DNA of 64,000 bases from an uncultured Verrucomicrobiota bacterium (GCA_964486075.1 CAZALU010000006.1:55-64054); one strand, 5' to 3'; positions 1-64,000 are shown, counted from the stretch's first letter. The notes: generated by a model not told the origin, from the sequence alone. Program-made: numbers and translations.

Positions 1-18
1 TCGCCGGAGAAACATAAG

Positions 19-414
19 ATGTCATTGCAGAGCATAGGCGGTTGCCCGTGGTGCGGCGCAAGCATCGACATGAAGAAGAATCAAGGGGCCTTTGAGTGCC
101 CCGTCTGCAATTGTCGATTCCTGCACAACTGGAAACCTTGGGTTGTCGGAATACCGATTGCGGTGGTAGCGGCTTACGCGGTGTTCCATTTCCTGCACAT
201 CGGAACTTTTGCTGCATTCTCCGGAGCCTTGGTGGCGATTACGATTGTGAAGCGAATGGGACTGTACCGAGTCCTTGTTGAGGGGAAGCCGGATGTCGCA
301 GGAGCGGAGGTCGCTGCACACGTGCCCGAAAAGAAGGAGAGCAGATGGGCCATCATCTTCATGGTTCTGCTGCTCCTGGCCATCGCGGTGTTTTTCGTCT
401 TTGCCTTGAAATGA
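19..414 (+). CDS. cassette-borne membrane protein with N-terminal Cys-rich zinc-ribbon-like motif (CPWCG...CPVCNC) and about 3 TM helices
   Basis: ORF track; CxxC...CxxC then hydrophobic helices; followed by attC-like palindrome. Confidence 0.45.
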   Translation: MSLQSIGGCPWCGASIDMKKNQGAFECPVCNCRFLHNWKPWVVGIPIAVVAAYAVFHFLHIGTFAAFSGALVAITIVKRMGLYRVLVEGKPDVAGAEVAAHVPEKKESRWAIIFMVLLLLAIAVFFVFALK

Positions 415-425
415 AAAGCGGAATC

Positions 426-488
426 GGCGAACAACAGGCTGGTGGCTATTCTCGCTCCGCTCGAAAGCCACAGCCTGGGCGTTCGCAC
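426..488 (+). other. integron attC-like site (GCGAACAACAGGCTGG...CCACAGCCTGGGCGTTCGC)
   Basis: imperfect inverted repeat starting ..AAC after the stop codon and ending ..GTT; same pattern recurs between every cassette ORF. Confidence 0.5.
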
Positions 489-543
489 TCAAGAAGATAA
501 AACATACTTGTCTTAAGTGGTTGAAAAAGGTATATATTTAGAC

Positions 544-744
544 ATGACAACGGTTCAAGAAATAGTAAAAGCGGTCAAGCACCTGCCAGAACAGGAGTTG
601 CACTCTTTTCGTTCCTGGTTTGAAGAGTTTGACGCCCAGGCGTGGGATAAACAGCTTGAACAGGATGTTCGGAGTGGCAAGTTGGATGTCTTGGCGGATC
701 AGGCAGTTAAAGATCTCAAGGCCAGCAAATGCACTCGAGTGTAA
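544..744 (+). CDS. type II antitoxin, putative addiction-module component (TIGR02574-like) paired with RelE/ParE toxin
   Basis: MTTVQEIVKAVKHLPEQELHSFRSWFEEF... pattern typical of small helical antitoxins; overlaps downstream toxin ORF. Confidence 0.5.
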   Translation: MTTVQEIVKAVKHLPEQELHSFRSWFEEFDAQAWDKQLEQDVRSGKLDVLADQAVKDLKASKCTRV

Positions 745-995
745 AACATCACGCAAATCCGCAATTCTGGAAAGCTTATTACGATCTCCCAAGCAAGATC
801 CAGAAACTGGCTGATGAGAATTTTGAACTTCTTAAGAGCGATCCACGGCATCCGTCTTTGCACTTCAAGAAAATTAGCCGTTTCTGGTCAGCCCGTGTCG
901 GATTAAGATACAGAGTTCTTGGTGTCGAATCTGATAGTGACATTATCTGGTTCTGGATAGGAATCCACTCCGAATACGACGTTCTGATCAGTTAA
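729..995 (+). CDS. RelE/ParE-family type II toxin
   Basis: C-terminal ...WSARVGLRYRVLGVESDSDIIWFWIGIHSEYD matches RelE/ParE core (R..YR..Y.....I....G.H..Y); 16-nt overlap with antitoxin. Confidence 0.6.
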   Translation: MHSSVKHHANPQFWKAYYDLPSKIQKLADENFELLKSDPRHPSLHFKKISRFWSARVGLRYRVLGVESDSDIIWFWIGIHSEYDVLIS

Positions 996-997
996 AG

Positions 998-1064
998 TGC
1001 GAACCATTTTTTGCAGCGTACTCGGCAACCTAGCGGTTGTCTCGGCGCTGAAAATGACGTTGGG
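998..1064 (+). other. integron attC-like site
   Basis: GCGAACC...CGGCAACCTAGCGGTTGTC...GACGTTGGGG; AAC left end, GTT right end 9 nt before next ATG. Confidence 0.45.
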
Positions 1065-1072
1065 GCACAGAG

Positions 1073-1330
1073 ATGAAAACGATATGGGTGGAAATACTGG
1101 TCATCTCGGCGATCATACTGATCCCTGTATCGTTTGCGTTGCGCGTCATCTACGGCAAGCGGTGGCTTGAATGGGAGAACAACCTTGTCGAGTCGTGGGG
1201 AATGAACGCCGGGGTATACACTCTGGTCAAGATGGGTGTACTTATTTTCCTCGGAGGGTACTGGGTGTGGCGAGAACGGAGAAAGCGGCAGAAACGGGAC
1301 GCCCTGACTTACGAGTTGCCAAAGACATGA
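1073..1330 (+). CDS. small membrane protein (2 TM), cassette-borne, unknown function
   Basis: ORF track; hydrophobic helices; flanked by attC-like sites. Confidence 0.4.
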   Translation: MKTIWVEILVISAIILIPVSFALRVIYGKRWLEWENNLVESWGMNAGVYTLVKMGVLIFLGGYWVWRERRKRQKRDALTYELPKT

Positions 1331-1332
1331 CA

Positions 1333-1407
1333 GGAACACGAAAGATGAGGCCCCAACCAAGCGTCGCAGTTTACGTCGCTTCGCGCCGAAACTGAACGCC
1401 GACGTTG
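1333..1407 (+). other. integron attC-like site containing conserved TTTACGTCGCTTCGCGCCGAAA motif
   Basis: GAACACG...CCCCAACC...GACGTTGTC; 22-bp motif shared with site at 6597-6618. Confidence 0.45.
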
Positions 1408-1428
1408 TCAGAGAGAAGAAAGGAAGAT

Positions 1429-2364
1429 ATGGCCCTATCCAAGCTGAAGAAGATTGACCTACGCGAAGAGTGGAAGCACGAGGCGACCGACTTCACCAAC
1501 TGGCTCGCGCAAGATGAGAATCTACAGCTTCTCAGCGAGGAAATCGGTATCGACATATCCCTCGTGCAGACCGAGGCAAGCGTCGGCAAGTTCAGTGTGG
1601 ACATCCTCGCGGAAGAAGACAACACGGGGCGCAAAATCGTTATCGAAAACCAACTCGAAACGACCAATCACGATCACCTCGGCAAGCTCATCACGTACGC
1701 ATCAGGCTTCGACGCGGAAATCGTGATTTGGATCGTGAAAGACGTACGGGACGAGCACAAGCAGGCGGTCGACTGGTTGAACGAGCATACAGATGACAAG
1801 ATCAACATCTTTGCGATCCGTATGGAGCTATGGCAAATCGGAGATTCGCCATACGCCCCGAAGTTCTATGTCGTCTCGAAGCCGAACGACTGGGCGAAAG
1901 CAATCAAGACTTCCACGTCGCGGTCGGACTTGTCCGACCGCCGCCTTATGCAGCTTGAGTTCTGGACACGATTCCAAGAGTACGCCTCGGCGCACGGCTC
2001 AACGCTACGGCTCCGCAAGGCGTATCCGCAACACTGGTACGACATCAGCATCGGTAATTCTAAGTCGCATCTGTCTCTTGTTGTCGATGCCGACAACGAG
2101 CAGATACGATGTGAGTTCTACATTCCCGACTCGAAACCCCTGTTCAACTCCCTGCACGAGAAGAAGGAATCCATCGAATCCAAGTTGCCCCATAAACTGG
2201 AATGGATGGAGTTGGAGGGAAAGAAGGCAAGCCGAGTCAGAACGATTCACACCATTGACGTTGAGGATAATGCCAATTGGGAAGCCAGCTTCCAGTGGCT
2301 GATGGACACCGCACAGCACTTCCACACAGTCTTTGCAGACCAGATGAAGAAGATGAAGATCTGA
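1429..2364 (+). CDS. hypothetical protein, N-terminal PD-(D/E)xK-like nuclease fold (VDIL...VIENQLE) plus C-terminal DUF4268-like region
   Basis: motif inspection of ORF 1405..2364; start at MALSKLKK chosen. Confidence 0.4.
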   Translation: MALSKLKKIDLREEWKHEATDFTNWLAQDENLQLLSEEIGIDISLVQTEASVGKFSVDILAEEDNTGRKIVIENQLETTNHDHLGKLITYASGFDAEIVIWIVKDVRDEHKQAVDWLNEHTDDKINIFAIRMELWQIGDSPYAPKFYVVSKPNDWAKAIKTSTSRSDLSDRRLMQLEFWTRFQEYASAHGSTLRLRKAYPQHWYDISIGNSKSHLSLVVDADNEQIRCEFYIPDSKPLFNSLHEKKESIESKLPHKLEWMELEGKKASRVRTIHTIDVEDNANWEASFQWLMDTAQHFHTVFADQMKKMKI

Positions 2365-2438
2365 CAACAACACGTCGGAGCTTACCTCTGGGGGCCGCGC
2401 GAACGCGTCCCCCAGAGGAAGCTCAACGTGAGCGTTGG
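2365..2438 (+). other. integron attC-like site
   Basis: CAACAACACGTCGG..ACCTCTGGGGG/CCCCCAGAGG..CAACGTGAGCGTTGG; clean internal inverted repeat. Confidence 0.5.
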
Positions 2439-2463
2439 TCGTTGTGCAAAGAGAGAAGGAAGG

Positions 2464-2934
2464 ATGAAGCTGAAGATCATACTCATGTCGGTGTTCCTTG
2501 CGGGAACAGCACTGGCCGATCATAACGCGATCCGTCTCGACTCCCTGATACTGGGACTTCCAGAGGGATGGGTTGTCTCAATCGTGCGGCCAAGCCATCT
2601 TGACTCGTGCGGGAATAGGCCACTGTTCGAGATGACGTGCGCCATGCCAGATGTCGAATACGAGCACGACACGAAGGTTGGCAGATTGAAGGAGCATCCT
2701 TCTTTGACCCTCATGTTCCATGCGACCTTCTCCGCGGAGAAGAGCGCCGAGTTCAAAAGGAAGGCAGCGGAGATCGAGGCGAGCCCACGAGCCGTAGCGT
2801 CACCTCATATTCTCGCCAAGACAGAGAACTACTGGGTTATGACCTACCAATCCGATGGCTATTTCGATCACCCAAAGGTCAAGGAGCTATACGATCATCT
2901 GAAGACCGTACTGTCGGTCAACAGAAAGGAATAG
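2464..2934 (+). CDS. secreted protein (signal peptide MKLKIILMSVFLAGTALA), unknown function
   Basis: ORF track; N-terminal signal peptide. Confidence 0.4.
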   Translation: MKLKIILMSVFLAGTALADHNAIRLDSLILGLPEGWVVSIVRPSHLDSCGNRPLFEMTCAMPDVEYEHDTKVGRLKEHPSLTLMFHATFSAEKSAEFKRKAAEIEASPRAVASPHILAKTENYWVMTYQSDGYFDHPKVKELYDHLKTVLSVNRKE

Positions 2935-2937
2935 GAC

Positions 2938-2999
2938 TGCACAACACGGCCTGCTGGGTACGACGCACAAGGTGCGCCGTCCCCTGACCCGTGACGTTC
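2938..2999 (+). other. integron attC-like site (shares TCCCCTGACCCGTGACGTTC with site at 4122-4146)
   Basis: GCACAACACGG...CCGTGACGTTCGCC inverted repeat. Confidence 0.5.
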
Positions 3000-3017
3000 G
3001 CCGGATACGAAGACAAG

Positions 3018-3404
3018 ATGAAGAAATGTGAGATCATGCTGGAGCCGCCCCCGCTTCCGAAGCGAATAACTCAGGGTTTCGGACCGGTGCTGCTTTGGGT
3101 TGTCGGCGGTCTCCTGTGTTCCTATGCCGGTCTTTTCTTCGTCCTGACGATAGTGACTCCGCCACCGATTGAACCACCAAGCCAGATGTCGTGGGCGGAG
3201 TTCCAGCACTGGGTTGATTCAGGAGCTTGGTTCTGGGACAGCATGAAGACATGCGCCGTGACTGGGACACTGGGTATCCTTCTGATCGCACTACCTTTCG
3301 TTAGACTGTGGAACAGAAAGACATCGGCGAACCAAGCCTCGGAGGTTACGGCTCGCAAGCTCGCCGAACCTCACCGCAGACGTTCGCTCTTAGGAAAAGA
3401 ATGA
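3018..3404 (+). CDS. membrane protein, unknown function
   Basis: ORF track; several TM helices; ATGA overlap with next ORF (two-gene cassette). Confidence 0.35.
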   Translation: MKKCEIMLEPPPLPKRITQGFGPVLLWVVGGLLCSYAGLFFVLTIVTPPPIEPPSQMSWAEFQHWVDSGAWFWDSMKTCAVTGTLGILLIALPFVRLWNRKTSANQASEVTARKLAEPHRRRSLLGKE

Positions 3405-3760
3405 AAACAATATCAACACATGCAGTTATACTCGTGGTCGGACTGGTCATCGGTTTGTTTCTAGCCGGATGCGCAAGCACAAGAATCAAACAACTCTCCG
3501 GTCAGGAGTTCATCAGTCAAGCAAGCCAGATCGGCCAACTCAATAGTTTTCATTGGACAAGCTACATCGGCGTCACTCCCGGTCGAGCCTATTTGGAGTT
3601 CGGTCACCCCACGCCACTAGGCAAGGGCTCACGAACCACGATCTATTGGACCTCGTTGTCTGAGCTTCCAGAAGATATTGCGTCGCAACTCAAGGCGGGT
3701 AATCCACCGTGGAAACCTTGGCAACCTGGGACAAACATGATGGAGCGAACAAACCACTGA
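3401..3760 (+). CDS. putative lipoprotein (MKTISTHAVILVVGLVIGLFLAGC)
   Basis: signal peptide with lipobox-like LAGC. Confidence 0.4.
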   Translation: MKTISTHAVILVVGLVIGLFLAGCASTRIKQLSGQEFISQASQIGQLNSFHWTSYIGVTPGRAYLEFGHPTPLGKGSRTTIYWTSLSELPEDIASQLKAGNPPWKPWQPGTNMMERTNH

Positions 3761-3800
3761 ACGGTACGGCGTACCGCCGCCCGTTAGTGGTGGCGTTCGA
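3759..3800 (+). other. short integron attC-like site
   Basis: GAACGGTACGGCGTACCGCC..GGCGTTCGA; AAC/GTT ends, GGTACG/CGTACC stem. Confidence 0.35.
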
Positions 3801-3807
3801 TGAAAAT

Positions 3808-4077
3808 ATGAAAATAAAATGGGTAATTATCGCCATCGGCATTGCGGCCATAGGCATATACCTCCTTGGCTATTACTCAGCCCGAAAAGACCATCTTCTC
3901 GTGCGACACCTAACTTTTACATATGGGACTAACGGAGAAATCATCCGAACATACAACATCGTCCCGGGAAATTATGGCCCCGGAAAAGGGGGCATACTTG
4001 TATCTCCCGCCGAGATCCAATTCTGCTACATCGTATTCACCCCGTTAAGAGTAATTGAGGCAGGATATCGAAAATAA
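3808..4077 (+). CDS. small membrane protein, unknown
   Basis: MKIKWVIIAIGIAAIGIYLL TM helix. Confidence 0.35.
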   Translation: MKIKWVIIAIGIAAIGIYLLGYYSARKDHLLVRHLTFTYGTNGEIIRTYNIVPGNYGPGKGGILVSPAEIQFCYIVFTPLRVIEAGYRK

Positions 4078-4083
4078 CAAAAC

Positions 4084-4146
4084 ATCGAACAAGCGGGTGC
4101 AGGGTACCCGCCACAAAGTGTCGGGTCCCCTGACCCGTGACGTTCT
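4084..4146 (+). other. integron attC-like site
   Basis: CGAACAAGCGGGTGCAGGGTACCCGCC...CCCGTGACGTTC. Confidence 0.45.
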
Positions 4147-4157
4147 GCAATGAGGAG

Positions 4158-4418
4158 ATGATGGGGAAGACCAGAAATGGATTGCTGGTGATCGCCCTCG
4201 GGGCGATCGGCTTGGTTGTCCTCTCCGCTCGCGCTCTCATCGCGCACGGATATGAGGCGCACATCGGCCACCCCCAACTCCATGTCTCGGCGCTCATTGC
4301 CTTCTGCCTTGCCTGCTTGGTTGGCGGAGTTGCTCTGATCCTGGTGGGAGCCATCTCCGTCGCGGGATTTGTCCGGAAGAAAAGGCAGGAGGGTGCAGAA
4401 CCAGGCGTCGGAAGGTAG
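4158..4418 (+). CDS. small membrane protein (2 TM), unknown
   Basis: ORF track. Confidence 0.35.
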   Translation: MMGKTRNGLLVIALGAIGLVVLSARALIAHGYEAHIGHPQLHVSALIAFCLACLVGGVALILVGAISVAGFVRKKRQEGAEPGVGR

Positions 4419-4460
4419 CTCGACCCGCGGCGGGTCTCGCACCTTCAACGCCGACGTTGG
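4419..4460 (+). other. short integron attC-like site
   Basis: GACCCGCGGCGGGTC palindrome then CAACGCCGACGTTGG. Confidence 0.35.
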
Positions 4461-4473
4461 CGAGGAATGAAAT

Positions 4474-4875
4474 ATGGAAACGATTCTATTTCGGACGGCG
4501 TACTTCCTGATTCAGGCGGTTCTTCTCGCCATCGTCGTCGTATCCCTCTGGATCGTGGCGAAAGGGAAGCCGTGGGCGAGAGTCCTGATGTTCATTCTGG
4601 CCGTCAGTGCCATCGGAATCCTCGGGCTCGCCACTGGCATCTCGGCCAACAGGCACACTGAGCAGCACCGTTTCGCGGACGAGTTTGCTCGGCCCCAGAG
4701 ATTGCTGATCGAACATCTCAGCAAGTTGATGGAGGAGAAACGGTACGCCGACGCGCAAGCATGCGTGACAGGGTTGAAGAGTTACGAACTGGAATTTCAT
4801 CCGAAGAATGGGCAGCCCCACACCAACTACACCGAGGTCGTGATGGGGTTGATCGAATCGCAACAACAGAGATGA
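4474..4875 (+). CDS. membrane protein (3 TM) with soluble C-terminal region, unknown
   Basis: ORF track. Confidence 0.4.
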   Translation: METILFRTAYFLIQAVLLAIVVVSLWIVAKGKPWARVLMFILAVSAIGILGLATGISANRHTEQHRFADEFARPQRLLIEHLSKLMEEKRYADAQACVTGLKSYELEFHPKNGQPHTNYTEVVMGLIESQQQR

Positions 4876-4946
4876 GGCGCCAACAACGCCTCGCAATATA
4901 TTGCTCACCCTGGCGGGTTCTCAAATGTTGAAGGCGAACGTTCGGG
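4876..4946 (+). other. integron attC-like site
   Basis: GGCGCCAACAACGCC....GGCGAACGTTCGGG. Confidence 0.45.
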
Positions 4947-4985
4947 AACGATAAAACAAAGAGAGGGTCACGCGGAGAGGATTCT

Positions 4986-5076
4986 TGACAGGATGAACAG
5001 GATGAAACAGGATTGAAGACGGAGAAGACAACCGGTGGGGCGAAGCGCCCATCCCGTTGAATCCTGTTTATCCTGT
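4986..5076. repeat. large hairpin inside an ORF-less cassette; arms carry 9-bp iterons (CAGGATGAA x3)
   Basis: GACAGGATGAACAGGATGAAACAGGATTGAA ...45 nt... TTGAATCCTGTTTATCCTGTC; no ORF >40 codons between attC sites 4876-4946 and 5096-5154. Confidence 0.5.
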
Positions 5077-5095
5077 CAGAAAGCTAAACTGATTT

Positions 5096-5154
5096 CCGAA
5101 CAATCCAGCGCACCCTAGCTCGCAAGGCTCGCAGAGTGACCGGTGACGTTCGGC
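5096..5154 (+). other. integron attC-like site
   Basis: CCGAACAATCC...GTGACCGGTGACGTTCGGC. Confidence 0.45.
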
Positions 5155-5178
5155 AGCAAGAGAGGGTAGAGAAGGATC

Positions 5179-6408
5179 ATGTTCGACGACAACGACAGGC
5201 AAATTCTACGCGATCTCGCCAAGGAAGTCTTGGAAATCGCAACAACATCGGTGATGACGAAACGCCGGAGGCTTTGGCGGCGACACAACGCAAGGGAAGG
5301 CAACAGGCCCGTTGTCTATATCGATCCGCAAGGTGCGTGGGGCGAACTCATTTCCCAAGTCAGCCTGCTCTGCCGGGACGAGACCGCCCGGAGTGTAGAG
5401 GAGAATCTGCGAAGACGTATCTACGCCTTCAAGCATTTTGCCAGCGACAACGTCGTGGAGCCAGAATGGATTGTCCGAAAGGTAATCCACAGTTCCGGAT
5501 GGGGGCTGACCGCTGTGCGTTCGCACAGCGGTGACCCTCGGGGCGCGTTTGGCTTCCAACCTCTCATCTCTTCACCTGCCGATCTGGCGAAGTTGAGGCA
5601 CCCGACCATCACCTTTGACGAGGCGGCCACCCAAGCGAACGAGGAAAGCTTCCAGGTCCTGTTCGGCGACATTCTGGAGATCCGCGTCAAGGGAATTGAC
5701 GATCTCTCCTATCACCTCATGAACCAGTATTCAGCCCTGCGTGGTCTCCAGGAACTCATGATTGACATGATCGAGAACCCCCAGATGGTGCATGACACGA
5801 TGGCCTTTCTTGAAGAAGGCCATCGTCGCATCCTTCAACAGTACGTTGAGCAGAATCTGCTTGATCTCAACAACGACAACACGCCCATTTACACGAGCGG
5901 GCACGGTTACACCGACGAACTTCCGGCGCCCGGATACCGTCGGGGGTACGTTCGTCCTATCGATCTCTGGGGGTGGGCGGAGGCCCAGGAAATGGCGCCC
6001 GTCTCGCCTGACATGCACGCGGAGTTCGCATTTCCCTATGAGAAGCGGCTGTTGCAGGCATTTGGGCTGAATGGATATGGCTGCTGTGACGACGTCACCC
6101 GGAAGCTGGATTTCGTTCTCACCATTCCGAACTTGCGCCGTGTGTCGGTCTCACCTTGGGCAGAGATCGAGCAGTGCGCGCGGAGGCTCAAGAGCGAGGT
6201 CATCCTCATGTGGAAACCGAACCCCGCACACTTGATTGGCGCTTTCAACGCACCGATACTTCGACGTTACCTGCAGCACGGGGTAGACACGGCACGCGCC
6301 AACGATTGCGTGCTGGAGATAGTTCTACTCGACACACATACATGCGAGAACCGCCCTGAAAGATTTGATGAATGGAGCCGGATTGCCTGCGAAACAGTCG
6401 CCGGATGA
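5179..6408 (+). CDS. hypothetical 409-aa enzyme-like protein (possibly URO-D/MtaA-like TIM-barrel fold), cassette-borne
   Basis: long ORF, no recognised signature motif. Confidence 0.4.
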   Translation: MFDDNDRQILRDLAKEVLEIATTSVMTKRRRLWRRHNAREGNRPVVYIDPQGAWGELISQVSLLCRDETARSVEENLRRRIYAFKHFASDNVVEPEWIVRKVIHSSGWGLTAVRSHSGDPRGAFGFQPLISSPADLAKLRHPTITFDEAATQANEESFQVLFGDILEIRVKGIDDLSYHLMNQYSALRGLQELMIDMIENPQMVHDTMAFLEEGHRRILQQYVEQNLLDLNNDNTPIYTSGHGYTDELPAPGYRRGYVRPIDLWGWAEAQEMAPVSPDMHAEFAFPYEKRLLQAFGLNGYGCCDDVTRKLDFVLTIPNLRRVSVSPWAEIEQCARRLKSEVILMWKPNPAHLIGAFNAPILRRYLQHGVDTARANDCVLEIVLLDTHTCENRPERFDEWSRIACETVAG

Positions 6409-6584
6409 AGGGACATCTTTTGCTGGTTCCTGACGCTCCGTGTGGTACACTTCTCTTGCATGGATGATTCCTTTCGGCGGGGTCTGCCGACGGACACAAT
6501 GTCCGCTACAGCCACGCCAAAAGGATCATCTTCGTAAATCACGCAATTTGGGAGACATTCTGCCGGCCTTGGGTCGGCTTAGTC

Positions 6585-6653
6585 CAACCAGCGCCTGCAT
6601 TTTACGTCGCTTCGCGCCGAAAATGAGGCTCAACGTTTATCCTGAACGTTGGA
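6585..6653 (+). other. integron attC-like site with conserved TTTACGTCGCTTCGCGCCGAAA motif
   Basis: second copy of 22-bp motif; CAACGTTTATCCTGAACGTTGG right end. Confidence 0.4.
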
Positions 6654-6703
6654 TTGACAAAGGAACCGGACAGAGGTATTCTTCAAACATGAGGTGAATA
6701 ACC

Positions 6704-6916
6704 ATGGCAAACACATATACGGCAGTGATGAAACAGGATGGCGGTTGGTGGATCGGTTGGATTGAGGAAGTGCCCGGTGTGAACTGCCAGGAGCGCACAC
6801 GCGAAACGCTCCTCGACAGTCTCCGCACCACGCTGGGTGAAGCACTCGAACTCAACCGCAAGGATGCCATCCGTGCGGCGGCACCCGACTACACCGAAGA
6901 ACAGGTTACCATATGA
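6704..6916 (+). CDS. hicB: HicB-family antitoxin (UPF0150)
   Basis: YTAVMKQDGGWWIGWIEEVPGVNCQERTRETLLDSL typical of HicB/UPF0150; 4-nt overlap with hicA. Confidence 0.65.
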   Translation: MANTYTAVMKQDGGWWIGWIEEVPGVNCQERTRETLLDSLRTTLGEALELNRKDAIRAAAPDYTEEQVTI

Positions 6917-7101
6917 AACGCAAGGAACTGCTCCGGTACATGCGTGAGCAGGGTTGCGTCTTTATTCGGGAAGGTGGGAGCCATTCATGGTGGGGCAATC
7001 CTGCGCAAAATCGTCGTTCTTCCATCCCCCGTCATTCCGAGGTTAACGACACCCTTGCCCGGAAGATCTGCAAGGATCTCGGGATCCCGTTTACACGATA
7101 A
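6913..7101 (+). CDS. hicA: HicA-family toxin (YcfA-like mRNA interferase)
   Basis: KELLRYMREQGCVFIREGGSHSWWGNP...IPRHSEVNDTLARKICKDLGI matches HicA motif (GSH...PRH...DLGI). Confidence 0.7.
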   Translation: MKRKELLRYMREQGCVFIREGGSHSWWGNPAQNRRSSIPRHSEVNDTLARKICKDLGIPFTR

Positions 7102-7103
7102 CG

Positions 7104-7170
7104 GCACCGAACCAGCAAATTCAGGCTATCGCCCCGCAAGGCGAGGCTCAGCCTGATTGGCGACGTTCGC
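7104..7170 (+). other. integron attC-like site
   Basis: CGAACCAGCAAATTCAGGCT..CGCCCCGCAAGGCGAGG..AGCCTGATTGGCGACGTTCGC. Confidence 0.45.
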
Positions 7171-7198
7171 TATAGGAGGAGATATTGCGGCAATAATC

Positions 7199-7429
7199 AT
7201 GAAGATCGAACTTAATCTCGGAGAGCAACCCATAGCGCGAATACTGGCTGAGCATGGGCTCAAGGCACATGACCTTGTTGCAATATCAACGGAGCAGCTC
7301 ACCCACAAGATGGTCTCCCGGGCGTGCAAAGGCAGAAGATTAACACCCAACGTCAAATCCAAAATGCGCAATGCATTAAACAGCTCTGCCAACAAAACAT
7401 ATGCCTTGGAGGAACTTTTTACCTATTAG
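7199..7429 (+). CDS. hypothetical small protein (possible HTH)
   Basis: ORF track; ATG at 7199 preceded by AGGAGGA. Confidence 0.35.
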   Translation: MKIELNLGEQPIARILAEHGLKAHDLVAISTEQLTHKMVSRACKGRRLTPNVKSKMRNALNSSANKTYALEELFTY

Positions 7430-7437
7430 CACCTCAT

Positions 7438-7570
7438 CCACACGAAACCGTTATATCATGCCATAGGCAGGCCCGCCTCTGGCGGGAACACCAAGATCGC
7501 AGGGATTCCGCTCAAGGCGAATCAGCCTTCGGCGGAAAACCCTGCACCACCTTAGGTTGTAGGCGTTAGC
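7438..7570 (+). other. possible long attC-like site or array terminus
   Basis: ACGAAACCGTT...two internal hairpins (CCCGCCTCTGGCGGG; GGATTCCGCTCAAGGCGAATC)...AGGCGTTAGCC. Confidence 0.25.
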
Positions 7571-7658
7571 CAGTTTTAGAAGGAAAACGAACCAAGCCTT
7601 GAGCCATATTTGTGCATAGTCGCCCAAAATGGTGAACGCTGGCGTTGGCACCGAGAAC

Positions 7659-8456
7659 ATGAAGACACTGCGCATAGCTACAGCGCAATTTCCAGTCAGC
7701 GCGCATATCGGCCGGAATCTGAGGCACATGGCTGATCTAATGGGAGCGGGCCGCCGTATCACAGCGGATGTCGTTCACTTTCCAGAGGCCTGTCTCGGCG
7801 GCTATGCCGGGGGCGATTTCAAGACTTGGTATGGCTACGACTGGAAGCGGTTGACCAATGCAGAACAGACTCTTCTCCAGCTATCAAAGAGTTTGCGAGT
7901 CGGCATCGTCTACGGCACAAACCACCGTGTCTCCAGCAGTGATATTCGCAACCGCCTGCTCTATGTGTCGGCCCAAGGCCAGCGTGTTGCCTGCTATGAC
8001 AAGCGCTTTTGCACCAAGGGCGACCTGAACTTCTACAGATCCGGCAAACGCTTTGCCTGTTTCGATATCAACGGATTCAAGTGTGGCATGTTGATTTGCT
8101 ACGATGTACGGTTTCCGGAACTATATCGAGAATACAAAAAACTGAAGGCTCAGGTGATCTTTCATTCTTTCTACAATGCCCGTGCCAAACAGGCGAGTAT
8201 CCACACCACTATCATGCGACCGACGTTGCAGGCCCGGGCGGCGTCCAACTACTTATACGTGAGCGGAAACAACGCATCCGGTTATTACCAATCTTGGCCG
8301 AGCGTTTTCGTCTTGCCTGATGGAACAATCTCTAAAGCCTGCCGGCAACACCGAACAGGGCTGATCCTGAACGAGATTTCCACCAAGGACAAATACTACG
8401 ATGCTTCGAAAGACCACCGCAACCGAGCCATGCGAGGCGTCTTACACAGTGAATAA
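7659..8456 (+). CDS. carbon-nitrogen hydrolase (nitrilase/amidase superfamily)
   Basis: E-K-C triad context: HFPE, CYDKRF, GMLICYDVRFPE. Confidence 0.7.
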   Translation: MKTLRIATAQFPVSAHIGRNLRHMADLMGAGRRITADVVHFPEACLGGYAGGDFKTWYGYDWKRLTNAEQTLLQLSKSLRVGIVYGTNHRVSSSDIRNRLLYVSAQGQRVACYDKRFCTKGDLNFYRSGKRFACFDINGFKCGMLICYDVRFPELYREYKKLKAQVIFHSFYNARAKQASIHTTIMRPTLQARAASNYLYVSGNNASGYYQSWPSVFVLPDGTISKACRQHRTGLILNEISTKDKYYDASKDHRNRAMRGVLHSE

Positions 8457-8765
8457 GCGGTTTGGCCAAAGGCTGAATACTCGACACATCTAGACCCCAT
8501 TCGAAAAGCTTTTTAACCGCGGATTACGCCGATAACGCAGATAAATTGTCAGCAGCAAAAGTTCCCGCGACCTTGCGTCGCGGGTGAAGACCATAATGCG
8601 AATTATTGTCGCAAAATGGAAAGGTGTAGACAGGCTGTCTCCGATTGCTTATCCTTTTGTAGTTAATTTCTAGTAATAATGATTTCACGTTTGCAGACGT
8701 TCCCGCCATAAAATGGCGCATAGGATTGCCGATATCAAAACGAACTGAACAGCAAGAGGCTCAGC

Positions 8766-9557
8766 ATGTCGAAGAAAATCTGCCGTGCCGCGTTAACCGC
8801 CGCCCTGACCGCCGTTGCGGCGCCAGGCCTGTGCGCCGGGAATGCCCCGAGCACGCCAGCCAGGGAAAACCTCATTGCCAAGATTCTTCCCTGGGTCGGC
8901 GCTCCGTCCACCCGTATGCCAAAGGGGCTCCTACTGCAACAAGGCAGCCTGATCGTCGCCATCGGAGATTCCATCACAGAGGCTGGCGGCTACTTGCGCG
9001 ACATCGACACAGCCTTGGCCGAGCTCTATCCGGCCCTGCAGCTCCCCGGGATTATCAACGCCGGCATTAGCGGACAGAAAGCAGAGGACCTGGTCGAACG
9101 CTTTCAGCGAGACGTCGTGGATCGTAAGCCGGCCGTCGTCACCCTCAGTATCGGCATCAACGACGTTTGGCATCGCCTGGGCAAACCGCACGACGAAAAC
9201 GTGCTCAAGGCCTACAAAGCAAACGTGGCGCAGATGGTGGACATGGCTCAAACTAACGGGATCAAGGTCATTCTCCTCACCCCAACGCTCATCAAGGAGG
9301 AGCCGAAGGCGGAAGGCAATCGACGCCTGGCCCGGTACGTTGAGGCCATGCAAGAGATCGCACTCGAAAAGAAATGCGGACTGGCCGACCTGCACGCGAT
9401 GTTTCTTGAGGCCCTCAAGCACAAGCCGGACGGGCTGGACGGGAACTGGCTTACGCAGGATGGCGTGCATACCAGACCGCCAGGCAACGCCGTGATGGCG
9501 ATCGGCGTGCTCCGAGCGCTGGATGTTCCAGACCGAGACATTGCGCGGCTGAAGTAG
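8766..9557 (+). CDS. secreted SGNH/GDSL-family lipase/esterase
   Basis: signal peptide; IVAIGDSITEAGG (GDS block) and DGVHTRPPG (DxxH block). Confidence 0.75.
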   Translation: MSKKICRAALTAALTAVAAPGLCAGNAPSTPARENLIAKILPWVGAPSTRMPKGLLLQQGSLIVAIGDSITEAGGYLRDIDTALAELYPALQLPGIINAGISGQKAEDLVERFQRDVVDRKPAVVTLSIGINDVWHRLGKPHDENVLKAYKANVAQMVDMAQTNGIKVILLTPTLIKEEPKAEGNRRLARYVEAMQEIALEKKCGLADLHAMFLEALKHKPDGLDGNWLTQDGVHTRPPGNAVMAIGVLRALDVPDRDIARLK

Positions 9558-30090: not shown

Positions 30091-30437
30091 AGGCCCGCGA
30101 TCAACGATCGCGGCTACAACACAATTTCCCTATTAGATTGAATCATGTCGTGCCAGCGCTTTTCTTGCTTTTTCCGAGGCCCGCGATCAACGATCGCGGC
30201 TACAACATAATTTCCCTGTTAGATTCAATCATGTCGTGCCAGCGCTTTTCTTGCTTTTTCCGAGGCCCGCGATCAACGATCGCGGCTACAACACAATTTC
30301 CCTATTAGATTCAATCATGTCGTGCCAGCGCTTTTCTTACTTTTTCCGAGGCCCGCGATCAACGATCGCGGCTACAACACAATTTCCCTATTAGATTCAA
30401 TCATGTCGTGCCAGCGCTTTTCTTACTTTTTCCGAGG
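30091..30437. repeat. tandem repeat, 4 copies of an 86-bp unit each carrying hairpin CCGCGATCAACGATCGCGG
   Basis: units at 30091, 30177, 30263, 30349 differ by 1-3 SNPs; entire unit repeated (not CRISPR). Confidence 0.85.
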
Positions 30438-48598: not shown

Positions 48599-49693
48599 TC
48601 ATTTATGATTGCGTCCGGCGGGTAACGCCATCAAAAGCGTGCTCGCTTGATCAGCAATAACACGCTCGGGCGAGGTGTTGAAGCAATCCCATTGGATCTC
48701 GACGGATGGGGCCTTGCGTTTCATCACGAGACGAGAGATCAACAGCGGGCCGATGATTTTGCCAAGGTCGGCGTAACGTCCAGAAAATACGATATGGTTG
48801 ATTCCTCCCATGGCGGCAATCCCGGCACCGCAGGCCAGGAGCAGGCGGTAATTCATAACCTCCCGGGCCAGCGATCCGTCATAACGCGTGGCGCTTAACA
48901 CCTGGTCCAGGGTCGTCCGCACTCCGGTCAGGCCCAGCAATCCGCTTTCGCGAGTCAACACCGCATCGATGCGCTCCGGCCCCCATTTCATTTTGTCGCT
49001 CAAGGTCATGATTATGCCGGGATCCAATTCCCCGCAAGTCGTCTGGCCGGGAAGGCCTTCCAGCGGGCTCAGCCCACCGGTGACCATAACTGGCCGATCG
49101 CGCAGGACGGCCGCCACTTCGGGCTGGGGCTCAAGGCAGACCGACACTATCCGGGGCACAGTCGGCAAATGACTGGCTTTGCGCAGGCGACAGACATGCG
49201 CGCAGGCCGCCGCATGAAGAATCCCTTGATGCCCGAATCGGCGCAGGGCGGCAGCATCCATCAATTCGGAATTCAGCGCATAATCCGCCTCCCGCTGGGG
49301 CAGCGCCACCAAGAAAGCGGTATCGAATATCAGGACCACGGGCTGGTCGGCATAATCATCCTGGAGAACCTTCAGCAGTTCAATGATTGCCGGCAGGCGC
49401 AGGGGTGACAGCGGTATCAGAGTTTCCAGGGAACTGAGCACATCGCCGATCAACAGCGTAGGGCGGTTGAAGATTTCACCGCCAAACGGAATACGAATCG
49501 CCCAAGCTCGGGGACGCTTGGCAACCGGTATCCCCTTCCGGCACGATTGCAATATGCTTTTCAAGGCCGGCCGGCACGCCGCGGCGCCACGATAATTGAC
49601 CATGCGCCCACTGCGCGATGGCAAGCTCTCGTTGCCGATAAACAAGGAAAAGTCCAGCAGCCTTGCGCCGGGATTTAAAACCAGAATATTCAT
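48599..49693 (-). CDS. acetate/butyrate kinase-family paralog with degenerate N-terminal phosphate-binding motif (possible pseudo-kinase)
   Basis: ILVLNPGARLLDFSL instead of ILVLNCGSSS; retains FDTAF, RFGHQG, ELDPG blocks. Confidence 0.55.
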   Translation of the reverse strand: MNILVLNPGARLLDFSLFIGNESLPSRSGRMVNYRGAAACRPALKSILQSCRKGIPVAKRPRAWAIRIPFGGEIFNRPTLLIGDVLSSLETLIPLSPLRLPAIIELLKVLQDDYADQPVVLIFDTAFLVALPQREADYALNSELMDAAALRRFGHQGILHAAACAHVCRLRKASHLPTVPRIVSVCLEPQPEVAAVLRDRPVMVTGGLSPLEGLPGQTTCGELDPGIIMTLSDKMKWGPERIDAVLTRESGLLGLTGVRTTLDQVLSATRYDGSLAREVMNYRLLLACGAGIAAMGGINHIVFSGRYADLGKIIGPLLISRLVMKRKAPSVEIQWDCFNTSPERVIADQASTLLMALPAGRNHK

Positions 49694-49711
49694 GACATTC
49701 CTCCGCAGCCG

Positions 49712-50920
49712 TTAGCCAGCCGCCTTGCGCAGCGCATCATAAGTGCCACGGGCTATCGCCAGCTCTTCATTTGTTTTAACAACCAGGATCCGTACCTCGC
49801 TGGAATCGGCTGCGACATCGGCGGGCAAGCCCGCCACGTCTTCATTCCGCCGCTCGTCAATTTTAACTCCGTAAAATCCCATATCCACGCAGACGCTCCA
49901 GCGGACCAACGGCATGGATTCGCCGATAGTATCGGTAAAGATTATCGCATCGGTGCGTCCCACGACCGCCAGATAGGCGCCCAGATATTTACGGATGCGC
50001 CAGAGATAGACTTGGGCGGTGCGGTTCATGCGCCGAGCGTGCTGTTTCGTTTTTGAAAGCGCGCCGAGCACATCGCGAATGTCGCCCGAAATTCCGGATA
50101 AGCCGAGCACGCCGCTGGATTTATTCAAGATGGATTCAACAGCCGCCGTGCTGCCCAACTCCTCGACCAGCAGTTTCAAAGTCACGCCAGGGTCCAGATC
50201 TCCGCAGCGGGTGCTCATGACCAAACCCTGCAGAGGCGAATAACCCATGGTGTTATCCACCGATTCACCGTTAACCACAGCGCAGAGGCTGGCCCCGCCA
50301 CTGCCCAGGTGACAACTGACCGCGTTAAAAGAATCCAGAGGACGCCCGAGAAAACGCGCGGCTTCTTCGACCACGTACTGATGGCTGGTGCCATGAAAGC
50401 CGTATTTACGGATGCCCATATCATCACGCAAAGCTTGCGGCAGAGCATAGGTCCGGGCATAATCAGGAATCGTGGCATGAAACGCCGTATCGAACACGGC
50501 TACCTGGGGCAAGCTGGTGTAACGGGAGCGGCAGGCCTCGATCAAGGCGGTAGCCGGCGGGTTATGCAGAGGCGCCAACCCCTGGATCGCCTTGAGAACC
50601 TTGATTGCTTCGCGGTCGACGACAGCCGGCCGGCTAAAATGAGAGCCACCATGCACCACCCGATGCCCGATGACATTCGGAATTAACGCCGCATCCCGCG
50701 CTAGAATGGCCATGATCTGGTCGAAGGCCGCAGCATGATTCGCCATGGGCGCAACGTGAATGGTTTCCCGCGCATTACATCTGTGGACAATGCGCGCCGG
50801 TTCGGCCGTTTTAGGCCCGATACGCTGGGCCTCTCCGGCCGCCAGTTCCTTTTCACCCGGCATGGAAATCAGGCGGTATTTCAACGACGAACTTCCGCAA
50901 TTCAACACCAGGATATTCAT
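49712..50920 (-). CDS. ackA: acetate kinase
   Basis: ILVLNCGSSSLKY, VAVFDTAFH, KYGFHGTSH, CGDLDPG. Confidence 0.85.
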   Translation of the reverse strand: MNILVLNCGSSSLKYRLISMPGEKELAAGEAQRIGPKTAEPARIVHRCNARETIHVAPMANHAAAFDQIMAILARDAALIPNVIGHRVVHGGSHFSRPAVVDREAIKVLKAIQGLAPLHNPPATALIEACRSRYTSLPQVAVFDTAFHATIPDYARTYALPQALRDDMGIRKYGFHGTSHQYVVEEAARFLGRPLDSFNAVSCHLGSGGASLCAVVNGESVDNTMGYSPLQGLVMSTRCGDLDPGVTLKLLVEELGSTAAVESILNKSSGVLGLSGISGDIRDVLGALSKTKQHARRMNRTAQVYLWRIRKYLGAYLAVVGRTDAIIFTDTIGESMPLVRWSVCVDMGFYGVKIDERRNEDVAGLPADVAADSSEVRILVVKTNEELAIARGTYDALRKAAG

Positions 50921-50928
50921 AGCATCTT

Positions 50929-52155
50929 TCATATTTCATCCGATGTCCACCCGCAGACGGGAATACCAACCAGACTATGTGCGATGACCGCGCTACCATA
51001 GAGCGCCGCGCTCAACTTGGCAAGTTCCACGTATTCCCCGGGGGCATGGGCCTGAGTTTCCAGCCCCGGACCGTACCCGACGGTTGGAATCTTGTATTCG
51101 TTCACCAGGACACTTCCGGCAGTTCCCATGCCCAGCCGGCCAAGCTGCCATTTGCCGGGCTTCACAGGGCTGCCGGCGGCTTCTAGGGCTTGCCGCGCCC
51201 GGTCCAGCATGGGATGGAAAGGATCCGTGCACCAGGCTCGGGTCACATGCCGCACAACATTAACCTTGCCGGTATAAAGCCGGTGTTTTTCCTGACGCAC
51301 CATGACATCCACGGCCACCTGGCCGCCGGCCGATCCGGCCACTTTGGCCATGCCTTTCTGCACCTCGCCCAGCACGTTTTCAATGTCCTCGTCCGCCTCC
51401 ATGCGGCGCGCCAGCCTGAGCGATGCCGAACGTCCCCCCTTCCCGTTCCGGAAATCGAGTTCTGAAACCTTAAGCATCTCGCGCTGCAGCCGGCCATCGA
51501 CGCTGCGCACGGATCCCTGCCCCAAATCGCCGACAATGGCGTTCACGGCGTCATCCACTTCAAACGGATTCAAGCCCTCGACCCGCACATCCAATTCCAT
51601 CCAGCCGTCATGCCCATAATACAAGCCCAGATCAGTGGGTTCACCCAGCATAACAAAATCGGGCTTCAATCCAAGATCAGGCAGGGTGCTCTCGATCAAT
51701 CCGCGCAAGCCGATGCTTAGCCCGTTTTCTTCCGCCGTGGTCGCGGCGACAATCAGGTTGCCCTTGAGAGGCAAGAGGCTGCGTTTTAGAAGGCTGCCGG
51801 CAAAAATTTGCGCGGCTAAGCCGCCCTTGCAATCGGCCGACCCTAAGCCATAAAGACGCCCGTCAGCAATCTTGCCGCTCAGGGGATCCTTCTCGTTGTC
51901 CGACGGAGCGACCGTATCCATGTGGCAATTAAGCAGGATCGTGGGCGCCTGCCGAACGCCGGACAGCAGGCCGACGACATTGCCGAAATCATCACGAAAA
52001 ACCTTGTGATAGCCTTGCGCTTGCATTGCGGATTCGACCAGATCACCCACCTTGGATTCATTCAGGCTGGGGCTCTCAGTTCGCACCAACTGCTGCGCGA
52101 AATCAACGGCTTCTCCCTGCAAACTGTGCATTTTGTCCTGTAAAATCTTATACAT
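50929..52155 (-). CDS. M20-family metallohydrolase (ArgE/DapE/YgeY-like)
   Basis: NCHMDTV, GSADCKGG, ATTAEEN blocks; AGGAGA RBS. Confidence 0.65.
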   Translation of the reverse strand: MYKILQDKMHSLQGEAVDFAQQLVRTESPSLNESKVGDLVESAMQAQGYHKVFRDDFGNVVGLLSGVRQAPTILLNCHMDTVAPSDNEKDPLSGKIADGRLYGLGSADCKGGLAAQIFAGSLLKRSLLPLKGNLIVAATTAEENGLSIGLRGLIESTLPDLGLKPDFVMLGEPTDLGLYYGHDGWMELDVRVEGLNPFEVDDAVNAIVGDLGQGSVRSVDGRLQREMLKVSELDFRNGKGGRSASLRLARRMEADEDIENVLGEVQKGMAKVAGSAGGQVAVDVMVRQEKHRLYTGKVNVVRHVTRAWCTDPFHPMLDRARQALEAAGSPVKPGKWQLGRLGMGTAGSVLVNEYKIPTVGYGPGLETQAHAPGEYVELAKLSAALYGSAVIAHSLVGIPVCGWTSDEI

Positions 52156-63807: not shown

Positions 63808-64000
63808 GAGGCGGGAAACCCGTTGGGCCTTCCCGCCCTACAATTCGGATTGTCCTGCTGTAGGGCGGGCACGTACCGTCCGCGGGATTGCCCACCGCAT
63901 CCGTTCCAAGGTGTATTGTAGGGCGGGCACGTCACGTCCGCGGGATTGCCCGCCACATCCGTGCCGAGGTTTATTGTAGGGCGGGCACGTCACGTCCGCG
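63808..64000. repeat. REP-like array, about 58-bp unit TATTGTAGGGCGGGCACGTCACGTCCGCGGGATTGCCCGCCACATCCGTGCCGAGGTT repeated about 2.5x, truncated by window end
   Basis: direct sequence comparison. Confidence 0.7.

Follow-up and report, generated by a model that had tools for sequence, protein, structure and literature searches.

A probable chromosomal integron-type gene-cassette array in an uncultured Verrucomicrobiota bacterium

We examined a 64,000-nucleotide stretch of DNA from an uncultured Verrucomicrobiota bacterium (GCA_964486075.1, CAZALU010000006.1:55-64054), referred to here as the window, and are highly confident that its positions 1-7645 are the promoter-distal stretch of a chromosomal integron-type gene-cassette array. 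Arrays of integron cassettes act as reservoirs of adaptive genes that are mobile, and most of those known come from Gammaproteobacteria. The array in the window comprises 15 open reading frames (ORFs) in 14 cassettes, which measure 314-1487 nt except for one of 208 nt that has no ORF. Each unit ends in an attC site, which is preceded by a promoterless ORF, by a toxin-antitoxin pair or by no ORF at all, and the units are delimited by imperfect palindromes of 58-80 nt that carry ..AAC at the left and GTT.. at the right. Every plausible ORF between position 1 and ~7645 lies on the + strand, as a first-pass annotation made from the sequence alone had noted; the same annotation had counted at least 17 small ORFs and palindromes of 40-75 bp, figures that are replaced by those given here. 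The identity of the inter-ORF palindromes as attC sites is supported by their geometry, by covariation, by cross-recognition with authentic sites, by the shuffling of a cassette among contexts, and by the targeting of one such site by an intron.

In canonical attC sites, the bases at position 16 (usually G) and position 23/24 (a conserved T) are extrahelical and enclose a 6-bp stem; both lie opposite the bottom-strand AAC, and the spacer measures 5-6 nt per arm (PMC5027507). We took 16 authentic class 1 attC sites from plasmid integrons and measured them for the same quantities as the array sites, whose coordinates span each site from R'' to R' with both 7-mers included. AAC/GTT triplets were present in 15 of 15 array sites, and the register was exact in 12 of the 15 once they were anchored on their R boxes. 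Read outward along the bottom strand, this register consists of R' (7 nt), 3 unpaired nt, a 6-bp stem, a second 6-bp stem and a variable end; on the return it consists of an unpaired T23, 6 bp, an unpaired base 16, 6 bp, 2 unpaired nt and R'' (7 nt). Both extrahelical bases are on the arm opposite the bottom-strand AAC, separated by the 6-bp stem. Position 23 is an extrahelical T in 14 of 15 sites, while position 16 is C in 12, G in two and A in one. Thirteen of the 16 authentic sites follow the corresponding pattern, 7/(6|5)/3/e16/6/e23, with G at position 16 in 12 and C in four (VIM-2, cmlA1, estX and dfrA5).

The array sites thus resemble class 1 attC sites in their AAC...GTT ends, in a G|TT crossover, in arms of 16 nt and 15 nt to the second stem, in the placement of both extrahelical bases and in a length that falls inside the 57-141 nt attC range. 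They differ in three respects. First, they form three extra base pairs within the 5-6-nt spacer, so that all in-register sites have an internal loop of 3 nt + 2 nt with total arm lengths unchanged; of the structural departures this is the chief one. Second, they mostly carry C rather than G at position 16. Third, their R boxes are GC-rich, usually (G/C)(G/C)CGAAC/GTTCG(C/G)N and typically GGCGAAC/GTTCGCC, rather than RYYYAAC/GTTRRRY, a consensus from which several authentic sites also depart. A strict regular-expression scan demanding 6 of 7 R-box matches recovered three sites only. Fold z-scores of the best sites range from -5 to -9, and comparison of the two strands favours the bottom one in 13 of 15 sites, with a mean difference of 1.9 kcal/mol. 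Of the features for which the first-pass annotation had proposed to inspect the bottom-strand fold, the extrahelical bases are present, at positions 16 and 23, and so is an unpaired central spacer, short at 3+2 nt.

Although sequence is poorly conserved among the sites (mean column identity 43-51%), structure is kept. MAFFT alignments of whole sites placed gaps in the stems, so we used arms-only constructs in which each site is reduced to its opening 25 nt and closing 26 nt. Across nine sites, 86.5% of cells were paired, compared with 64% in shuffled alignments (none of 500 reached the observed value) and 33-44% when partners were slid, and the covariation score was 0.652 versus 0.208 in shuffles. 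Eleven of the 12 pairs of the L-stem showed compensatory changes in which both sides were altered.

To score the whole window on both strands, we used a covariance model, R1, made from these nine array sites. It returned 11 hits with E<0.02, all within 426-7170 and all on one strand, and it detected five sites outside its training set: S11 (33.4 bits, E 3.4e-7), S9 (29.4 bits, E 4.9e-6), S13 (23.1 bits), S12 (18.3 bits) and S10 (18.1 bits, E 0.009). No match below E 0.2 occurred on either strand across 7.7-64 kb. When R1 was run over 2 x 91 kb of plasmid DNA comprising seven authentic class 1 arrays, the nine hits with E<0.03 were all authentic attC sites (aadA1, three copies of aadA2, aadB, VIM-2, aadA16, qacL and HAD); their boundaries were exact or at most 4 nt off, the strand was correct, and nothing else scored below E 0.4. 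A model built on the array sites thus recovers class 1 sites.

We also constructed a geometry descriptor from authentic attC geometry only, with no parameter taken from the array sites. It found 16 authentic sites and gave no hit outside the authentic arrays. In the array it matched eight sites, plus one overlapping hit, in 7.2 kb, where shuffles predict ~0.06; the remaining 2 x 56 kb of the window yielded four hits, and the shuffle mean was 0.93 per 128 kb. A second covariance model, R2, built from the arms of 11 authentic attC sites, was too sequence-specific: aadA-type sequence dominates it, and of five authentic sites held out of its training it failed to detect three. Its top three matches in the window were S7, S11 and S3, with exact boundaries but at only 17.0, 10.9 and 9.6 bits. 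An Rfam scan of positions 1-9000 matched no family, group II introns included, the best score being a chance microRNA match (E 0.11). Among the control sequences, the Rfam AAC_AAD_leader family (a putative aminoglycoside riboswitch or attI site) matched the attI1 of the class 1 Raoultella plasmid L012 at 5842-5911, as expected.

Evidence that these units have moved came from the first cassette. Homologues of its ORF (ORF1, 19-414) with 58-67% identity were found in two Kiritimatiellia metagenome-assembled genomes (MAGs; 61-67%) and in three short metagenomic contigs; a metagenome scan with a three-sequence profile gave one 1-kb contig. The ORF1 cassette occurs in five contexts (the window together with L002, and L003, L004, L007 and L020) in which the upstream neighbours are unrelated. 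In all five, homology starts at G|TTCGCC, ~17-20 nt ahead of the ATG; this is the integron crossover point, and the cassette boundary is here seen directly. The attC at L003:2780-2841 is homologous to S1 and differs from it by compensatory changes (CAGGCTG/CAGCCTG versus CAAACTG/CAGTTTG), and in L021 the ORF1 cassette is followed by a different attC of the same geometry.

A group II intron provides independent biological evidence that such sites behave as attC. The 3' end of an intron at L020 1166-1276 (RF00029, 40.2 bits, equal to the gathering score) splits the R'' box of the ORF1-cassette attC at GGCGAA|TCGGG, on the opposite strand. On L012, a group II intron that matches RF02001 (134 bits), RF01998 and RF00029 and adjoins an annotated ltrA is inserted, in the same orientation, in a cassette attC, which it interrupts at GCCTAA|TCGGG. 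The L020 intron therefore occupies the same bottom-strand R'' position as its counterpart in a class 1 cassette, as group IIC-attC introns do (PMC3001079). The L020 contig holds ~100 nt of the intron, whose membership of the IIC-attC lineage is suggested by the ~85% identity of the two intron ends over 73 nt of domains V-VI.

Taken together, the geometric triplets, the extrahelical bases at positions 16 and 23, covariation, cross-recognition and cassette mobility all agree with the earlier reading of the palindromes as attC sites. Its description of each palindrome as directly following a stop codon does not hold throughout: S0, S6 and S9 overlap the 3' end of their ORF, and S12 begins 173 nt past the stop. 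The motifs it had seen to be common to pairs of sites exist, at positions 2-5 nt from those it gave: TCCCCTGACCCGTGACGTTC occurs at 2980 and 4126, and TTTACGTCGCTTCGCGCCGAAA at 1370 and 6601.

The integrase that would act on these sites was sought with IntI1, a query that is 100% identical to the annotated intI1 of more than 5000 plasmids. A tblastn search of the window and of contigs L001-L006 gave a best E of 1.5, no IntI-like ORF was found in the window, in keeping with the earlier remark that no integrase was in view, and no tyrosine recombinase was detectable in the 64 kb. One ORF, L004:7401-8324 (- strand), was considered as a divergent integrase on the strength of its position and rejected: it encodes a hydrophobic membrane protein with no family match. 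The source contig is apparently 64,753 nt long, which places the array at its end, with at most 753 nt beyond the left edge of the window. Cassette arrays are a common break point for assemblies.

[quoted passage not shown] The array has 13-15 sites spaced 150-1490 nt apart and no integrase within 64 kb. The adjacent intI, attI and cassette promoter (Pc) that mark a complete integron are not in view in the same 64 kb, and the contig ends at most 753 nt leftward. Because no integrase lies in the 64 kb and the array abuts the contig end, we label it operationally a CALIN; equally, it could form the distal part of a sedentary chromosomal integron that is complete.

Several observations weigh against reading the region as part of an integron. 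IntI, attI and Pc are all out of view, and the left edges of the arrays in L003 and L004 are visible with no integrase beside the first cassette. The sites depart from the usual form in the central spacer (3+2 unpaired nt versus 5-6 nt per arm), in the C at position 16 of 12 of 15 sites where G is usual, and in R boxes that fall outside RYYYAAC/GTTRRRY except for the triplet. S2, S5, S14 and S15 are weak or off register, stem 1 of S6 pairs poorly, and R2 scores the array sites weakly (E 0.05 for the best). Finally, all public copies of the array, from two samples, are identical, and no recombination was seen among them.

A rival reading is that the sites are genuine attC sites in a dead remnant: an ancient CALIN, in a lineage now without any IntI, whose cassettes have become fixed chromosomal genes. 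A contig without an integrase, the cassettes of L003 and L004 that likewise have none adjacent, the degenerate S2, S5, S14 and S15 together with L004's flanking sites, and the identity of the copies in two samples are all consistent with such a history. However, at least 10 sites retain full geometry with compensatory changes, which argues for continuing structural selection, and the presence of one cassette in five contexts implies recombination during the divergence of lineages. Moreover, most CALINs are considered available for use in trans (PMC4889954), and the array's left side is missing because the contig ends there. We consider a dead remnant unlikely, while giving it appreciable weight.

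We regard as very improbable the proposal that the cassettes are moved by a recombinase other than IntI that uses a related hairpin, with a likeness to attC that is convergent or partial. None of the three arrays with visible surroundings has a neighbouring IntI, and the short central spacer and C16 are unlike the commonest form of attC, as this proposal would have it. Yet the arm lengths, extrahelical positions and crossover point equal those of attC to the base, C16 also occurs in authentic attC sites, a model built on the array sites recognizes authentic ones, an attC-type group II intron uses these sites, and CALINs lacking a nearby IntI are common in bacteria (PMC4889954). Least credible of all is that the palindromes are repeats resembling repetitive extragenic palindromes (REP), bacterial interspersed mosaic elements or miniature inverted-repeat transposable elements, or else terminators, between the short genes of ordinary operons: they are intergenic and imperfect, and sequence blocks are common to S5/S8 and to S3/S12, but no family member lies outside 1-7.65 kb of the window (a REP family spread equally beyond the region, named earlier as an alternative, is not what R1 found), all hits are on one strand, diverse sequences keep their structure through compensatory changes, the hairpins have no T-runs and terminator-like sites are not enriched (10 found versus 10.0 expected, none on the attC-like hairpins, + strand), unpaired bases at fixed positions and AAC/GTT ends serve no role in a terminator, and gene and hairpin travel as a unit among different neighbours with a base-exact junction.

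If the region is part of an integron-type array, its operation can be sketched from what is known of how integrons work. The bottom strand of each attC, when single-stranded, is predicted to fold into a hairpin in which the 5'-AAC-3' of one R box pairs with the GTT of the other. IntI would bind the folded bottom strands and cut between G and TT, cassette circles would be excised by attC x attC recombination, and the excised circles would be reinserted at attI. Cassette polarity would place intI, attI and Pc to the left of the window. A stabilizing effect on the array is plausible for the two toxin-antitoxin cassettes, as in other chromosomal integrons.

Compared with known systems, the array is a new example of a well-known one and not a new kind of element. 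As in class 1 cassettes (aadA1, aadA2, aadB, blaVIM-2 and cmlA1), attC stands at the 3' end of a promoterless ORF; unlike class 1 integrons, the array is chromosomal and carries no antibiotic resistance cargo, and IntI, attI and the 3'-conserved segment are not in view. It resembles the Vibrio cholerae superintegron in being a chromosomal array of short, mostly uncharacterized ORFs in one orientation with housekeeping flanks, and in having ORF-less cassettes as well as toxin-antitoxin cassettes with promoter-like sites of their own. It differs from the superintegron in that its attC sites are heterogeneous and fall into small subfamilies only, whereas the V. cholerae repeats are highly uniform, and in that only ~14 cassettes are visible, with any integrase end out of view. 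Heterogeneous attC sites, cassettes of unknown function and the lack of a nearby integrase are features of CALINs (PMC4889954), but in this case the label may be an assembly artefact: the array abuts the contig end, and an integrase could lie beyond it.

The host is probably a Kiritimatiellia bacterium; cassette homologues in Kiritimatiellia MAGs are the only taxonomic lead. Integrons and CALINs are already known from Archaea and from many phyla, Planctomycetota among them (PMC4889954, PMC9024848, PMC9668308). Our literature search found no paper on integrons in Kiritimatiellia; papers containing both words treat them separately. The array would extend cassette arrays to Kiritimatiellia, within the Planctomycetes-Verrucomicrobia-Chlamydiae (PVC) superphylum. 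It leaves the concept of integron function unchanged, and its combination of short-spacer, C16 attC sites with canonical arms makes it useful for testing attC detection models and the specificity of integrases. A more speculative and rather improbable idea is that Kiritimatiellia keep several small chromosomal cassette clusters at separate loci without an adjoining integrase, which would rely on an IntI acting in trans, either distant or a horizontal visitor, or conceivably on a different recombinase, with short-spacer C16 attC as a lineage-specific mode of recognition. If true, this would be the first integron-type system described for the phylum.

The individual cassettes are listed in Table 1.

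Table 1. Cassettes of the array and the first gene past it, in window coordinates (R1, covariance model from array sites; GD, geometry-descriptor match).
Feature	Coordinates	Strand	Gene content	Terminal site
Cassette 1	1..481	+	ORF 19-414 (131 aa, Zn-ribbon-like CxxC pairs and hydrophobic segments)	attC S1 426-487; R1 48.3 bits
Cassette 2	482..1059	+	Toxin-antitoxin pair: small ORF 544-744 and ParE-like toxin 729-995	attC S2 998-1065; weak, off register, 2-nt bulge, top-strand G..A signature kept; R1 7.9 bits
Cassette 3	1060..1404	+	ORF 1073-1330 (85 aa, hydrophobic)	attC S3 1351-1410; R1 44.4 bits; GD
Cassette 4	1405..2434	+	ORF 1429-2364 (311 aa, DUF4268)	attC S4 2362-2440; 79 nt, long terminal stem, in register; fold z -8.8
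Cassette 5	2435..2996	+	ORF 2464-2934 (156 aa, signal-peptide-like N-terminus)	attC S5 2939-3002; 3' half identical to that of S8; register 1 nt short; no R1 detection
Cassette 6	2997..3382	+	ORF 3018-3404 (128 aa)	attC S6 3326-3388; R1 46.9 bits
Cassette 7	3383..3795	+	ORF 3401-3760 (119 aa, lipobox-like LAGC)	attC S7 3744-3801; fold z -5.3; R1 48.3 bits; GD; best R2 match in window
Cassette 8	3796..4142	+	ORF 3808-4077 (89 aa, one hydrophobic segment)	attC S8 4084-4148; fold z -5.6; GD
Cassette 9	4143..4456	+	ORF 4158-4418 (86 aa, hydrophobic)	attC S9 4395-4462, overlapping ORF end
Cassette 10	4457..4940	+	ORF 4474-4875 (133 aa)	attC S10 4878-4946; GD
Cassette 11	4941..5148	+	ORF-less, 208 nt	attC S11 5095-5154
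Cassette 12	5149..6635	+	ORF 5179-6408 (409 aa), then 173-nt spacer	attC S12 6582-6641; GD
Cassette 13	6636..7165	+	HicB-like ORF 6704-6916 and HicA 6913-7101	attC S13 7106-7171; GD
Cassette 14	7166..7645	+	ORF 7199-7429 (76 aa), structured 150-nt stretch	Terminal degenerate attC-like site, S14 (7483-7562, off register) or S15 (7586-7649; R1 12.3 bits, E 0.44)
Carbon-nitrogen hydrolase, first gene past array	7659..8456	+	CN_hydrolase, E 3.7e-22	No attC after gene

Almost all of the proteins encoded by the ~14 cassettes are of unknown function, and several are small and hydrophobic or bear signal peptides; family searches with the largest, the 409-aa product of cassette 12, gave no match. The two toxin-antitoxin pairs recognized in the first-pass annotation are both present, each consisting of a toxin preceded by a small ORF: one toxin matches ParE_like (E 3.4e-5) and the other HicA (E 1.8e-11), the latter with a weakly UPF0150/HicB-like partner (E 0.007) and a promoter-like site at 6654-6682 ahead of the pair. 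The product of cassette 4 matches DUF4268 (E 4.9e-32) and, over its full length, the PADLOC defence candidate PDC-S11 (E 2.8e-124). To judge from these matches, it would be a phage-defence candidate borne as an integron cassette, and would fit with the defence genes that chromosomal integrons carry. The ORF-less cassette, also reported before, contains a long hairpin at ~4986-5080 with an 18-bp stem and repeated ACAGGAT units (RNA fold z -5.06), which may represent a small RNA, a regulatory element or the decayed remains of an inverted-repeat element. The ORF of cassette 6 reads through its own attC and stops 22 nt inside the next cassette, and the terminal structure of S12 has a 22-nt core in common with S3.

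At its left end, the array extends beyond the window. A short ENA contig, L002, matches the window exactly and adds 126 nt leftward, where it shows the 3' terminus of one more ORF and a further site, S0 (L002:68-131). Cassette 1 starts at the TT of S0 (L002:125-131), and the window opens on the second T. Exact-protein look-ups for the array returned only short contigs of 0.9-3 kb. At its right end, the array stops at cassette 14, with no attC-like hit further right by R1 or by the geometry descriptor. The non-coding stretch at 7430-7590, between the last cassette ORF and the terminal sites, is strongly structured (RNA fold z -4.2). The carbon-nitrogen hydrolase ORF, if read from the ATG at 7629, overlaps the last attC-like site. 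Its true start is likely the ATG at 7659, downstream of the last GTT, because the Pfam alignment starts at residue 15 of the ORF from 7629 and the N-terminal motif is MKTLRIATAQF.

The rest of the window is ordinary chromosome, with genes for a two-component system, type II secretion, LpxA, DnaJ, biotin carboxylase, DNA polymerase III delta', cysteinyl-tRNA synthetase (CysRS) and acetate kinases. The last of these are two adjoining genes of the acetate-kinase family on the - strand (48599-50932), one matching over its full length (E 4.8e-115) and the other divergent and partial (E 4e-34). An intergenic tandem repeat of four 86-nt units that are 97% identical lies at 30091-30437, adjoining the dnaJ-like gene. 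A second tandem repeat, of 2.4 copies of a 58-nt unit (91%), lies at 63859-64000 and is truncated where the window stops on the right; the contig seems to continue for no more than ~750 nt past the window, so that both of its ends may lie in repeats. Repeats also occur near the related cassettes on other contigs. The Kiritimatiellia MAG contig L003 has, at 1131-1330 and 3010-3130, ~40-nt tandem repeats (GATCGCCGACGTCGCCGCCCACCGGGTGA...) between the housekeeping genes and the first cassette and a 2 x 55-nt direct repeat past its last visible cassette, and the MAG contig L004 has two ~75-nt elements with internal inverted repeats (CAGTGCAGTAGA...CTGCAC) at 8690-8850, upstream of a small cassette cluster.

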